2,683 bases of DNA from a virus (IMGVR_UViG_2609459824_000012); one strand, 5' to 3'. Positions 1 through 2,683 are shown, counted from the stretch's first letter. Translations and numbers: made by a program. The notes: generated by a model from the letters alone, not told the origin.

Positions 1-317
1 TCTCTATTAATTCATAATGTTAAGGGGTGAACAGTTTCAAAAAAACTATTCACCAACTGTTCACCACTGTTCACCCTTGAAGCTCAATAAACAATCAAAA
101 AGGTGAACAGTGAATAGTTTGGTGAACAGTTCATAAATAACTGTTCACCCTATAATATACTGATATAAAAGATATTTATGACAGGGTGAACAGTGGTGAA
201 CAGTTATTCCATAAGTTTAATTTTTGCTATCGTCATTAGTGACCGATACACATGATGGCATCCAGTCTTCTGATTCCTCCGTCAGTGTCACGTTTGAACG
301 CAAACCGTGCTTCGTTT
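1..317. repeat. Direct repeat copy A: identical to 2367-2683 (period 2366 bp); holds the iteron array and the last 27 codons of the ClpP-like CDS
   Basis: Base-by-base comparison of 1-317 with 2367-2683 found no mismatch. The repeat runs to the window edge, so its true length is unknown. Confidence 0.95.
26..202. promoter_or_regulatory. Iteron array of P4 alpha-type octamers (TGTTCACC), candidate ori/crr-like replication element
   Basis: Perfect TGTTCACC on the plus strand at 58-65, 68-75 and 142-149; perfect GGTGAACA (octamer on the minus strand) at 26-33, 102-109, 121-128, 185-192 and 195-202; one-mismatch copies at 47-54 and 109-116. The core often extends to the 10-mer ACTGTTCACC. Two adjacent pairs (58/68 and 185/195) are spaced exactly 10 bp apart. 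AT-rich spacers at 76-101 and 150-183 could act as an unwinding region. TGTTCACC is the octamer I recall as bound by P4 alpha at ori and crr. Confidence 0.7.
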
Positions 318-1000
318 TTAAACACTTCACTTATTCCATTGATGCGCTTCTGTTCATTACCAGCAATATTTGCCGCTCCCTGTGGCGGTGTAATCATTCC
401 TTTAATGGTTTCCGGCATATGTAAAAAATCTCCTGTGCGTTTCGATTCAATTCGCGCCATTGCTCTGACGGATGGCAACAATTCATCAGCAAAACCGTGC
501 TTAAGGCATTCTTTCCCATCCATCCAGGTTTCATCCTCCAGCATGGCGGTAATTTCCTGTGCTGATTTGCCCGTTTTTCTGGCATAAGCAGGGATTAACA
601 CGGTTTCCACCTTATCCAGCAAATCAGCATAATCACGCATATCGCCAGCATTTCCGCCAGAGATACCCCACGGTTTATGGATCATCATCATGGCGTTCTC
701 CGGCATAACAACACGATCGCCAGCCATTGCGACAACCGAAGCCATTGAAGCCGCAACACCATCGATATAAACCGTAATGTCTGCCGGATGATTCCGTAGC
801 AGGTTATAGATGGCGATGCCTTCAAACACATCACCACCTGGTGAATGGATCCTCAGATTGATATGTGAAACATCGCCAAGGGCTTTCAGGTCTTCCGCGA
901 ACTGCTTTGCAGTAACACCGAAGCCGCCAATCTCCTCATAGATAGATATATCCGCCGCTCCGCGAACATCCGCCGCCTTAATGGTGTACCAGTGATTCAT
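236..1000 (-). CDS. ClpP-fold (peptidase S14-like) serine protease, 254 aa, with a ~80-aa C-terminal extension; prohead-protease-like
   Basis: The translation aligns by eye to the ClpP core: HSPGGDVFEGIAIYNLL matches the ClpP NSPGG...IYD segment, GVAASMAS matches the active-site GxAASMG serine motif, MMIHKPWG matches the MIHQP histidine motif, and GFADEL sits where the catalytic Asp is expected. ATG at 1000-998 is preceded by GGAGAG (plus 1007-1012) with a 6-nt spacer. The start overlaps the stop of the upstream 69-aa ORF (ATGA, 1000-997). Confidence 0.85.
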   Translation of the reverse strand: MNHWYTIKAADVRGAADISIYEEIGGFGVTAKQFAEDLKALGDVSHINLRIHSPGGDVFEGIAIYNLLRNHPADITVYIDGVAASMASVVAMAGDRVVMPENAMMMIHKPWGISGGNAGDMRDYADLLDKVETVLIPAYARKTGKSAQEITAMLEDETWMDGKECLKHGFADELLPSVRAMARIESKRTGDFLHMPETIKGMITPPQGAANIAGNEQKRINGISEVFKNEARFAFKRDTDGGIRRLDAIMCIGH

Positions 1001-1206
1001 TGCTCACTCTCCGATGCAAAACCACTCTGATTAAGCCAGGCGTTTACGGCATGCCTGACAATCTGCGCCACACCTGGTAATGGTTTGTCAGGATGATGAT
1101 TTATATGGTCGATCCTGTACTGCTTAAGGCGCATAACGGTCTGCGCATCCAGATGAACGGAACCACCCCTGATATCGCCCGTGTTCAGGTCATTAATACA
1201 ACTCAC
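997..1206 (-). CDS. Small hypothetical protein (69 aa), possibly a ribbon-helix-helix-like DNA-binding protein or protease partner
   Basis: ORF with a GTG start at 1206-1204 preceded by a strong SD (AAGAGGAAG, 5-nt spacer). Its stop overlaps the ClpP-like start (ATGA), implying translational coupling. The pattern SVHLD / AQTVMRLKQYRIDHIN / VAQIVRHAVNAWL is compatible with a beta-strand and two helices, but this is a weak call without a profile search. Confidence 0.55.
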   Translation of the reverse strand: MSCINDLNTGDIRGGSVHLDAQTVMRLKQYRIDHINHHPDKPLPGVAQIVRHAVNAWLNQSGFASESEQ

Positions 1207-1308
1207 AGTAACTTCCTCTTACTGACTAAACTGTGCACATTATTGATCGATAAAAGTGGTAGATAAACATATTTCTATCATAAAAATAGATTAATGAGAT
1301 TCAGACAC

Positions 1309-1331
1309 AAAAAAGCCGGATAAAATCCGGC
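1309..1331 (-). terminator. Rho-independent terminator (minus strand)
   Basis: On the minus strand: GCCGGA-TTTTA-TCCGGC hairpin (plus 1315-1331) followed by TTTTTT (complement of the A-run at 1309-1314). It lies about 100 nt upstream of the 69-aa ORF start. Confidence 0.65.
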
Positions 1332-1374
1332 ATAAATATCCCGCCATCTGAACACGTTTTGACACAGGCAACTC

Positions 1375-1387
1375 CACCTGGCAGGTG
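1375..1387. other. 13-bp palindrome CACCTG-G-CAGGTG, followed by iteron-like GGTGAAAAACAG
   Basis: Perfect inverted repeat seen directly, in the noncoding segment between the two minus-strand terminators. A related degenerate motif, GGTGAAAACAG, recurs at 1461-1471. Confidence 0.4.
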
Positions 1388-1582
1388 AAAAACAGATTTA
1401 TTTATATATTTCAATTAATTGCAAACTGGTCTAATGACAGGGAGAAAAAAATATTGTACAGGTGAAAACAGAAATAACTTTTAATTATCAATAAATTACT
1501 ACACATGCTGCCGCCGCCATGAAAATGCAAAAACCAGCCTTTTTCCGCGACGCTCCCGCCCCGTGGCAGGTCACTACACCGG

Positions 1583-1605
1583 GAGGACCCATAAAAAAGC
1601 CGGAT
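1583..1605 (-). terminator. Rho-independent terminator of the 81-aa/SSB operon (minus strand); possibly bidirectional
   Basis: On the minus strand: GCCGGA-GCAA-TCCGGC hairpin (plus 1589-1604, extendable by an A1588:T1605 pair) followed by a T-run (complement of A 1583-1588). It sits 25 nt downstream of the SSB stop (1631-1633). Its stem is the same as in the terminator at 1309-1331. Confidence 0.75.
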
Positions 1606-1630
1606 TGCTCCGGCTTCTGTTACTCGTTGC

Positions 1631-2053
1631 TTAAAACGGTATGTTATCCCCGTACGGATCATCATTTCCCGCCTGTTGTTTTGCTCTGCTCAGTGCATCA
1701 GTAGCCTGCCCCTGTTGGCCTTTTTTGCCGCCCGGTCGCGCCGTTCTCGCACTGATTACGCTGTCTGCGATACCCTGCCAGCCCTGCCGCGTCTCCCCGT
1801 TCTGTCCGGTCCACTGGCTCACCTGCATGTTACCCGCCACGCTCAGGAGTTCACCCTTGCGGTGCTTTGCCAGTGCTTCGGCCTGTCTGCCAAACGCCAG
1901 GACGGATAACCACATCGTCGCCGTTCCGTCATCTGCCTGGCTGCACGGAAGTGGGACCGCCATACTCGCCATCGTCATTTGTGTACCCTTGCTGGTGGTC
2001 TTTAACTGCGGGTCAGCCACCAGCCGCCCGTAAGCCGCTATCTGTGCTGTCAT
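1631..2053 (-). CDS. ssb: Single-stranded DNA-binding protein (SSB) homolog, 140 aa, compact with a short linker
   Basis: The translation shows OB-fold SSB hallmarks when compared with E. coli SSB: an N-terminal segment resembling VILVGNLGQDPE, a WLSVLAFGRQAEALAKHRKGE segment resembling [22 protein letters not shown], a WTGQNGETRQ segment resembling WTDQSGQDRY, and a C-terminal tip DDPYGDNIPF resembling the DDDIPF partner-binding tail. ATG at 2053-2051 is preceded by GGAGAG (plus 2062-2067, 8-nt spacer) and overlaps the upstream ORF stop (ATGA, 2053-2050). Confidence 0.85.
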   Translation of the reverse strand: MTAQIAAYGRLVADPQLKTTSKGTQMTMASMAVPLPCSQADDGTATMWLSVLAFGRQAEALAKHRKGELLSVAGNMQVSQWTGQNGETRQGWQGIADSVISARTARPGGKKGQQGQATDALSRAKQQAGNDDPYGDNIPF

Positions 2054-2295
2054 GCTGTCTGCTCTCCGGTTTTAACGTTGATGGTTGTCACCTGTTCCGC
2101 TTCGGCAATCTCCCGTTCTGTCAGCGTGGCAAAGTTTGCAGCTGCCGTTGTCATGAATGAGCTAATCAGTTCGGGATGTGCTTTCGCATATCCTTCCCCG
2201 GCGTTGCGGTCGATGATTTTTATCGACACCCTTAACCAGTGTTCCGTCAAATCAAGGGCGTGCGATTGTGATTTTTTTGTGTGCTTCGCTGTCAT
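2050..2295 (-). CDS. Hypothetical protein (81 aa), first gene of the SSB operon
   Basis: ORF with ATG at 2295-2293 and its stop overlapping the SSB start. The RBS is weak (GAGATAAAGCCT before the ATG). I recognise no family from the sequence. Support comes mainly from the operon layout, which mirrors the 69-aa/ClpP pair. Confidence 0.5.
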   Translation of the reverse strand: MTAKHTKKSQSHALDLTEHWLRVSIKIIDRNAGEGYAKAHPELISSFMTTAAANFATLTEREIAEAEQVTTINVKTGEQTA

Positions 2296-2340
2296 AGGCT
2301 TTATCTCACAGCAGTAAATTAAAATTTTTGCGTTTTAACC

Positions 2341-2568
2341 CTTCACCTGTTCACCTTTTGATATTTTCTCTATTAATTCATAATGTTAAGGGGTGAACAG
2401 TTTCAAAAAAACTATTCACCAACTGTTCACCACTGTTCACCCTTGAAGCTCAATAAACAATCAAAAAGGTGAACAGTGAATAGTTTGGTGAACAGTTCAT
2501 AAATAACTGTTCACCCTATAATATACTGATATAAAAGATATTTATGACAGGGTGAACAGTGGTGAACA
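2341..2568. promoter_or_regulatory. Upstream continuation of the iteron array (2341-2355) plus the copy-B iterons (2392-2568)
   Basis: CTTCACC at 2341-2347 and a perfect TGTTCACC at 2348-2355 lie just upstream of the repeat; the copy-B octamers are at 2392-2399, 2424-2431, 2434-2441, 2468-2475, 2487-2494, 2508-2515, 2551-2558 and 2561-2568. Read circularly, the array spans about 2341-2366 plus 1-205 and overlaps the likely promoter of the 81-aa/SSB operon. Confidence 0.65.
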
Positions 2569-2683
2569 GTTATTCCATAAGTTTAATTTTTGCTATCGTC
2601 ATTAGTGACCGATACACATGATGGCATCCAGTCTTCTGATTCCTCCGTCAGTGTCACGTTTGAACGCAAACCGTGCTTCGTTT
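2367..2683. repeat. Direct repeat copy B (second pass through the start of the 2366-bp unit)
   Basis: Identical to 1-317. Consistent with a circular 2366-bp molecule drawn past its junction or with a head-to-tail tandem array. Confidence 0.95.

Follow-up and report, generated by a model that had tools for sequence, protein, structure and literature searches.

[quoted passage not shown] The element that carries them is a Gram-negative PICI (GN-PICI) of the helper-embedded form (HE-PICI), a type of phage satellite that has already been described (PMC10111431). The window, by which we mean the whole stretch of 2,683 nt that was analysed, finds its best complete-genome match in the chromosome of E. 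coli B1-56 (99.96% identity), and positions in that locus are given below with the prefix L001. The features of the window are as follows.

318..319, no strand: non-homologous junction that fuses the primase 3' end (L001 14366) to the interior of a protease/capsid gene (L001 12001), with no microhomology
319..1000, minus strand: 5' part of the protease/capsid fusion gene, its first 227 codons; in L001 the product is a ClpP-like prohead protease/major capsid protein of 637 aa
1358..1590, no strand: cos-like region, with the ssb terminator on one side and the morphogenesis operon on the other
1595..1618, minus strand: intrinsic terminator of the 81-aa/ssb unit, GCCGGA-GCAA-UCCGGC followed by UUUUUU
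1631..2053, minus strand: ssb, 140 aa, with an OB domain at about residues 1-105, a short Gly/Gln-rich linker and a tip that ends in PYGDNIPF
2050..2295, minus strand: 81-aa gene of the phrog_1231 family, a predicted antiparallel helical hairpin, the stop of which overlaps the ssb start (ATGA)
2296..2582, no strand: satellite replication origin, with TGTTCACC octamers in both orientations flanking AT-rich stretches
2583..2683, minus strand: 3' end of the initiator gene, its last 101 nt (the C-terminal 33 codons plus stop), repeated at 217-318

A repeat search across the 2,683-nt window finds a perfect 317-nt direct repeat, one copy at either end, the copies being 2,366 nt apart. In the BLAST alignments, window positions 319-2683 correspond to L001 12001-14365 with a single mismatch and window positions 1-318 to L001 14049-14366, and the window is thus a chromosomal segment of 2,366 bp whose ends are joined to each other. 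The junction creates a chimeric 254-aa ORF (236-1000), the final 27 codons of which derive from the junction, and this ORF is known from one record, the 2,683-bp contig JNPR01000109.1 of the draft assembly GCA_000703825.1; because it occurs in that record only, we take the window to be the whole of that contig. The junction sequence had no match in the viral and metagenome contig collections searched. The protease/capsid part that lies beyond the junction matches Pfam CLP_protease (E=2.6e-36) and NCBIfam NF045540. The cos-like region is 92.7-94.6% identical to phages HannyBb, cdtI and Tritos, and it matches bases 1-204, the left end, of the cdtI and Tritos records at 94.6% identity; additional partial cos-like copies adjoin the small-terminase-like genes of both the satellite and the prophage in L001. 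The Rfam scan gave only one sub-threshold miRNA match, on the inverted iterons, which is noise.

The initial annotation had considered the SSB to be encoded by a mobile element, and the complete genomes identify that element as a PICI. In L001 the island spans about 10.5 kb between terminase gene fragments at 8252-9373 and 20190-21182, and according to the annotation of this locus it splits the large-terminase gene of a lambdoid prophage, leaving one half of the gene on either side. Nearly all of the island genes are on one strand. The early part of the gene order consists of int (18787-20025), an HTH regulator (18571-18774), BRO-N, Icd-like and DUF4222 genes, and the gene for a 605-aa 'DNA primase family protein', which is the initiator (14265-16082); a 287-nt gap that holds the origin, the 81-aa ORF, the SSB gene and the non-coding cos-like stretch come after it, and the 3' end is occupied by the ClpP-protease/major-capsid fusion gene followed by a DUF1441 small-terminase-like gene. 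The size of the island, its int, its regulator, its primase/rep gene and its one direction of transcription all agree with the description of PICIs as islands of about 10-20 kb with an AlpA-type regulator (PMC6092414, PMC10111431), and features for packaging are present as well, namely the cos-like region, the DUF1441 small-terminase-like gene and the flanking split large-terminase gene. HE-PICIs were described by Mageeney et al. (NAR Genom Bioinform 2023; PMC10111431), who list insertion sites in terminase genes and who place primase, SSB and DUF5906 genes in a replication category that colocalises with mapped origins. At least 80% of the window is present in 91 complete E. coli genomes, where the segment of about 2,366 bp occurs once, and a gene annotated as primase family or primase-like DNA-binding protein stands beside the iterons in these genomes, among the matches listed. 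DNA of the 81-aa/SSB pair is more widespread: of 5,426 complete E. coli genomes, 1,867 contain it.

The iteron array noted in the initial annotation is real. Ten exact copies of TGTTCACC, together with one near copy, lie between 2348 and 2568, in a region that stands between the initiator stop (2583) and the 81-aa start (2295), and most of this origin is duplicated at window 1-216 owing to the overlap of the contig ends. The same octamer is annotated as 'ori type 1 repeat' in the ori and crr of phage P4. In GN-PICIs, the genes of which are unidirectionally transcribed, the origin lies immediately 3' of the initiator gene and consists of two sets of iterons around an AT-rich region (Fillol-Salom et al.; PMC6092414), and the window origin, with its iterons after the initiator stop and its AT-rich spacers, fits this description. 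The array and the SSB pair had been described as a unit without an initiator. This is literally so for the window, but the window does hold the last 101 nt of an initiator gene, and the unit appears to lack one because the contig boundaries cut that gene off; in complete genomes the initiator is directly upstream, and in L001 its 605-aa product carries the Pfam domains D5_N, DUF5906 and Pox_D5.

The 140-aa product is an SSB-family protein by its sequence. The profile search that had been proposed as a check places it inside the family: it matches Pfam PF00436 (E=2e-14; 54 bits, with the gathering score at 26; positions 4-100 of a 104-position profile) and PHROG 44, 'single strand DNA binding protein' (E=1.4e-37), as well as 23 solved SSB structures, of which the best match has E=2.5e-10 and E. 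coli SSB (1eqq) E=4.4e-4, while the score of 53.8 against NCBIfam TIGR00621 is marginally (0.15 bits) below the cut-off of 53.95. PGAP likewise annotates it as an SSB in the complete genomes sampled. In the alignment with E. coli SSB, to which it is 28% identical, three of the four aromatics that stack on ssDNA are kept, with W48, F54 and W81 aligning with W54, F60 and W88 of the E. coli protein, whereas W40 has no aromatic equivalent and the tetramer-interface His55 is replaced by Leu. The OB fold and the IPF tip that had been read from the sequence are therefore borne out by the profile and structure matches and by conservation of the tip, and so are the short length, reduced linker and less acidic tail: the linker has about 27 residues as compared with about 60 in E. 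coli SSB, and the C-terminus (...GNDDPYGDNIPF) has GDNIPF in place of DDDIPF.

The searches recovered SSBs of this kind from Escherichia, Shigella, Salmonella and Citrobacter. Among the 120 SSB cluster representatives listed, the C-terminal consensus is P[YF]GD[NGDE]IPF with few exceptions, and nearly all full-length proteins end in IPF, with ISF, LSF, LPF, VPF and APF as rare variants. The allele of O157:H7 ends in DDISF, presumably the same Pro-to-Ser change as in the ssb-113 defect, and because some alleles have this ending not all of them may dock host partners. Between island alleles the SSB gene has dN/dS values of 0.05-0.21, which indicates strong purifying selection. The window SSB has Gly94 where all five compared homologs have Val, and this is its sole mismatch to L001 (nt 1773). 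In the literature searched we found no experiment on the function of an SSB from a PICI.

The 81-aa ORF is a real gene for a conserved helical hairpin protein. The initial annotation could identify no motif in it, and this holds for Pfam, NCBIfam, PADLOC and PDB sequences, none of which gave a match, but not for PHROG, in which the protein matches phrog_1231 (labelled 'unknown function') with E=8e-49 over residues 1-80 and profile positions 3-82 of 83. A profile search against 1.84 billion cluster representatives returned 662 relatives at E<=1e-3, each of which represents a cluster at 50% identity; they are mostly 70-110 aa long and have in common the core A[IV]xxID...[FL]GxGYAKxHPEL[IV]AAFMxTAA. 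All 29 diverse relatives sampled match phrog_1231, and a Pfam scan of the same 29 matched no family. The AlphaFold2 model built on the diverse alignment (pLDDT 88) predicts helices at 3-32 and 41-78, and the turn of the predicted hairpin coincides with the conserved motif G-E-G-Y-A-K-x-H-P-E-L. Fold searches with the model found generic hairpins only and nothing informative, and the family profile compared with PDB sequences found only designed coiled coils at E>0.1. The gene is under purifying selection (dN/dS 0.21-0.50); differences between alleles are concentrated in the first 20 residues, and the C-terminal two thirds are nearly invariant across islands. The coding signal and the conservation in related sequences for which the initial annotation had asked are thus both present.

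The 81-aa gene and ssb had been annotated as co-transcribed; both ORFs are found on the minus strand at the positions listed above, and a single terminator follows them. The stop of the first gene and the start of the second share the sequence ATGA, with a GGAG ahead of the SSB start, and the pair is supported as one translationally coupled unit. The GC-rich terminator hairpin lies 13 nt past the SSB stop and has a folding energy of -18 kcal/mol (z=-3.8), with none of 200 shuffled sequences folding as well. A consensus terminator scanner did not list this hairpin. A consensus scan of the gap that separates the initiator stop from the 81-aa start detected neither a sigma-70 promoter nor a terminator, and inspection by eye found weak promoter candidates only; the simplest reading, we infer, is that transcription of the initiator operon continues across the origin and into the pair.

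The order of initiator, gap, phrog_1231 and SSB recurs in EcCICFT073, in an O157:H7 island that has a RepA-type helicase (AAA_25) as initiator, and in D5_N/DUF5906 islands. Because the same slot is filled alike behind differing initiators, the module appears to travel with satellite origins whatever the type of initiator. The association of the two genes is frequent but obligatory in neither direction. In one locus phrog_1231 follows a RepA helicase without an SSB (L011), in another a 101-aa gene stands between phrog_1231 and SSB (L027), and in two others the SSB is preceded by unrelated ORFs of 100-102 aa (L004 and L016), in the second of which a phrog_1231 relative lies 3.3 kb from the SSB. 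The ORFs that take the place of phrog_1231 before the SSB in L004, L016 and L027 are not one family and have at best a weak patch of 35 residues in common. Distant relatives of phrog_1231, on Methylococcales MAG, JGI and Logan contigs, adjoin resolvase, integrase or toxin-antitoxin genes, and the contexts examined contained no adjacent SSB and no informative neighbours. The initial annotation had proposed to check whether homologs of the 81-aa ORF are always found next to ssb, and they are not, the partner being absent in L011, distant in L016 and separated by another gene in L027. The suggestion that the 81-aa protein could be a factor associated with the SSB gains something from an adjacency that is very common and from a natural fusion of the two proteins (P0282, 220 aa), which occurs once, on a single contig; it is weakened by the four exceptional loci and by the distant relatives. 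The pair as a whole is dispensable, because a near-identical island (NZ_CP148328.1) has lost both genes through a 583-bp deletion that corresponds to window 1691-2273.

The replication-accessory reading would work as follows. After induction, a P4-alpha-like SF3 helicase/origin-binding protein would bind the TGTTCACC iterons downstream of its own gene and unwind the AT-rich core of the origin. The satellite SSB, made from the same transcript, would coat the exposed single strands, its D-x-I-P-F tip may pass these on to those replisome proteins of the host that dock on the C-terminus of SSB, and the protein would add to the SSB pool of the host at a time when helper and satellite are both replicating. 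The 81-aa hairpin, translated in step with the SSB by means of the ATGA overlap, may be an accessory factor of the same stage, with the SSB, the initiator/origin complex or a host protein as candidate partners; for want of an informative homolog or fold match, this part of the explanation is a guess. The module would be helpful and not essential. We regard a replication-accessory SSB as the best reading because of the position of the genes, their membership in the operon, the host-type tip and the strong purifying selection. Replication that depends on P4 alpha requires, in vitro, the SSB of the host together with Pol III holoenzyme and gyrase. The dispensability of the module fits this reading, since the cloned rep gene and ori fragment of EcCICFT073 alone maintain a plasmid (PMC6092414) and the NZ_CP148328.1 island lacks both genes, but the loss of the module from an otherwise intact island is equally consistent with a purely accessory, non-replicative role.

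Because the module is dispensable and the third residue from the SSB C-terminus drifts, there is room for a role in interference or host takeover. The pair would then serve helper interference, host takeover or counter-defence instead of aiding replication, which we hold to be unlikely; the satellite SSB, with its altered tip, and the hairpin would vie with the SSB of host or helper, either for ssDNA or for the proteins that dock on SSB, and the outcome could be slower replication or recombination of the helper, weaker SOS signalling or ssDNA that is hidden from immune sensors. Such a role is consistent with a module that acts as a gain/loss cassette next to accessory genes such as PerC-like and ProQ-like ones, although neither protein matches a PADLOC defence model. 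Three positions from the C-terminus the residue is N, G, D or E, and there are alleles with the endings ISF or TPF, a variation typical of proteins at a conflict interface, but the core D-x-I-P-F tip is kept and the low dN/dS of the SSB speaks against such a role. In other phyla, phrog_1231 relatives adjoin toxin-antitoxin, restriction-like and recombinase genes and not replication genes, whereas in islands with three different initiators the pair has a fixed place beside the origin, where the replication genes end. It is also doubtful, in our judgement, that the hairpin is a factor associated with the origin or the initiator, such as a modulator of copy number or of helicase activity, that acts independently of SSB and is adjacent to ssb merely because both genes fill the slot after the origin. 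Wherever phrog_1231 is at an origin in the E. coli and Shigella islands examined, it comes first after it, and this constant place points to the origin complex, as does its persistence without an SSB or with another gene between, and the presence of the SSB behind unrelated small ORFs. Its occurrence behind three unrelated initiator types (D5_N/DUF5906/Pox_D5, AAA_25 RepA and, at a distance, DUF927), with C-terminal two thirds that hardly change among these islands, argues against a specific initiator partner, however; the phrog_1231 relative of L016 lies 3.3 kb from the origin, the distant relatives have no recognisable replication genes as neighbours, and both the ATGA coupling and the single natural fusion point to the SSB.

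The remaining alternatives concern the contig itself or give the pair a more specialised function. That iterons, SSB and partner constitute a self-contained unit without an initiator of its own, in which the SSB aids establishment or replication, would agree with a closed contig of 2,366 bp that holds the origin, the SSB pair and a cos-like site and that could in principle be replicated in trans by the island initiator and packaged by the helper. It is highly improbable all the same, because this unit cuts through the initiator and protease/capsid genes at a junction that has no microhomology, that occurs in one contig of a draft assembly and that has no counterpart in the viral and metagenome collections searched, while the 91 complete genomes have the segment in single copy beside a primase-type gene, among the matches listed. 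We think it quite unlikely that the hairpin serves specifically to modulate the satellite SSB or the host proteins docking on its tip, or, as a separate matter, that the 2,366-bp unit is a real mini-replicon. If the former were true, the pair would re-route the SSB-centred replication and repair hub of the host to the satellite origin and away from the helper, and no hijacking module made up of an SSB and an adaptor would have been described in a phage satellite before it; if the latter were true, a mini-replicon copied in trans by the island initiator and packaged via the cos-like site would be a parasite of the satellite. The preferred reading of a replication accessory has consequences of its own. 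If the module boosts satellite replication or tilts the host SSB network, this would explain the presence of a second, divergent ssb in about one third of complete E. coli genomes, and it would supply a further step in the replication of GN-PICIs alongside helpers, of which only an outline exists so far. The phrog_1231 family is widespread in mobile elements and has a strikingly conserved loop, and a function for it would annotate thousands of genes.

The two genes are an ordinary module, annotated before, of a satellite family that has been described: the SSB is annotated by PGAP, is present in a model PICI and is listed as a replication gene (PMC10111431). The model in question, EcCICFT073 (strain CFT073, NC_004431.1 1384284-1384948; WP_001260558.1 and WP_000126698.1), has the same layout, with an 85-aa ORF and then ssb, and like the island of the window it has a D5_N/DUF5906/Pox_D5 initiator, a gap (of 288 bp), a phrog_1231 ORF and an SSB with a 4-nt overlap. 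Its 81-aa-type and SSB proteins are 86% and 70% identical to those of the window, respectively, and its tip reads DDIPF. The two islands differ in their sites, EcCICFT073 being located beside chromosomal phoQ and the window island inside a prophage terminase gene, and in what comes after the pair, which is a PerC gene, a lambda-E-type capsid gene and a decoration gene in EcCICFT073 but the cos-like region and the ClpP-protease/capsid fusion in the window island. The EcCICFT073 literature searched contained no study of the 81-aa-type gene or of ssb. The HE-PICIs of PMC10111431 resemble the window island in their size of about 10 kb, their int, AlpA-like regulator and primase genes, the co-orientation of their genes and their interruption of a lambdoid late gene; the prototype is in capsid gene E, whereas the window island splits the large-terminase gene, a site listed in the same study, in which the SSB was not analysed and the small ORF not named.

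The origin also resembles the P4 replicon, which uses the same octamer, and its position directly downstream of the initiator gene is that of P4 crr after alpha. P4 alpha and the island initiator both have D5_N, DUF5906 and Pox_D5, but the island protein is without the Zn-ribbon and Toprim primase domains of alpha, and by its annotation the P4 record has neither an SSB gene nor a hairpin-like ORF in the corresponding slot; the gene content of the window island is that of a PICI and not of P4. E. coli SSB (P0AGE0; 1eqq, 1eyg) has in common with the window SSB the OB fold, the three aromatics, a disordered linker and the IPF tip, but the former is an essential protein of 178 aa and the latter an accessory one of 140 aa.

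F Ssb and its relatives, the SSBs of conjugative-plasmid leading regions, are likewise element-encoded and non-essential and have a host-like tip. They are carried on conjugative plasmids, and the window SSB is not. An origin as a leading-region SSB was rejected, since 2,631 of the 2,634 places that match the pair in complete E. coli genomes are chromosomal and no leading-region neighbours were seen. Two large records labelled 'plasmid' (about 83% identity) are called non-mobilizable, and in one of these, CP061267.1, the pair is flanked by chromosomal roxA and phoQ/phoP; NZ_CP148328.1 is an excised island. This last record is circular, 10.8 kb in size and about 98% identical to the island of the window, and it is the only hint of helper-dependent induction, replication or transfer.

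The region after the origin, which in the window holds the SSB pair (an 81-aa phrog_1231 gene and a 140-aa ssb, both on the minus strand), is a variable slot for small accessory genes, given the ProQ-like and PerC-like genes that follow SSB in related islands (L016-L019, L022-L026). In L018, SSB has been lost and a truncated ProQ-like ORF takes its place. Both genes of the pair are missing from L013 (NZ_CP148328.1), an almost identical island that was submitted as a circular "plasmid" of 10.8 kb, and the cause of this loss is a 583-bp deletion (window 1691-2273; L013 5840-5851) that leaves a remnant ORF of 12 codons (MTAKHTKTTGGE), followed by the terminator of the pair; the BLAST pieces flanking the deletion overlap by 12 nt. 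In one case the two proteins appear joined: P0282, of 220 aa from a Logan contig, is a single in-frame phrog_1231-SSB fusion (joint ...INVKTGEV-TAQIAAYG...) that could be real or an assembly error.

At SSB residue 94, in the region of the OB domain's last beta strand, the window has Gly, whereas all five homologs compared carry Val. This Val-to-Gly change, at nt 1773, is the sole mismatch between the window and the chromosome of E. coli B1-56, and it may be an error of sequencing or a mutation that damages this copy. The SSB of the O157:H7-type island (L003 8919-9329; L012 7249-7659) ends in DDISF, and the CFT073 allele, otherwise almost identical to it, keeps DDIPF. The DDISF end carries the penultimate Pro-to-Ser change of E. 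coli ssb-113, a mutation that weakens partner docking.

Two further features lie on the other side of the pair:

997-1206, minus strand: 69-aa ORF, phrog_4934 (unknown function), immediately preceding the protease/capsid fusion gene
1358-1590: cos-like non-coding stretch that shares 92.7-94.6% identity with the lambdoid phages HannyBb, cdtI and Tritos

The cos-like stretch is presumably the cos site of the satellite, because its matches in cdtI and Tritos are bases 1-204 of each phage record. Partial copies of 80 nt, about 90% identical, adjoin the DUF1441 genes of both the island and the helper prophage in B1-56 (L001 10665-10744 and 21820-21899), and from their position the island may have two cos-like sites, as have been reported for the E. 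coli satellite EcCICFT073.

The window is the whole of contig JNPR01000109.1 (GCA_000703825.1), in which a 2,366-bp segment of the island closes on itself and the ends overlap by 317 nt (window 1-318 and 2367-2683). The closed unit contains the cos-like site, the SSB pair and the origin, and its junction (318|319) shows no microhomology and truncates the genes for the initiator and the protease/capsid fusion. Faulty assembly or tandem amplification could have produced it, or it could be a genuine mini-circle of origin plus cos.

The phrog_4934 ORF overlaps the start of the protease/capsid gene by 4 nt. At this place RefSeq has no gene on the same strand, and calls a 57-aa ORF on the opposite one (L001 12775-12948).
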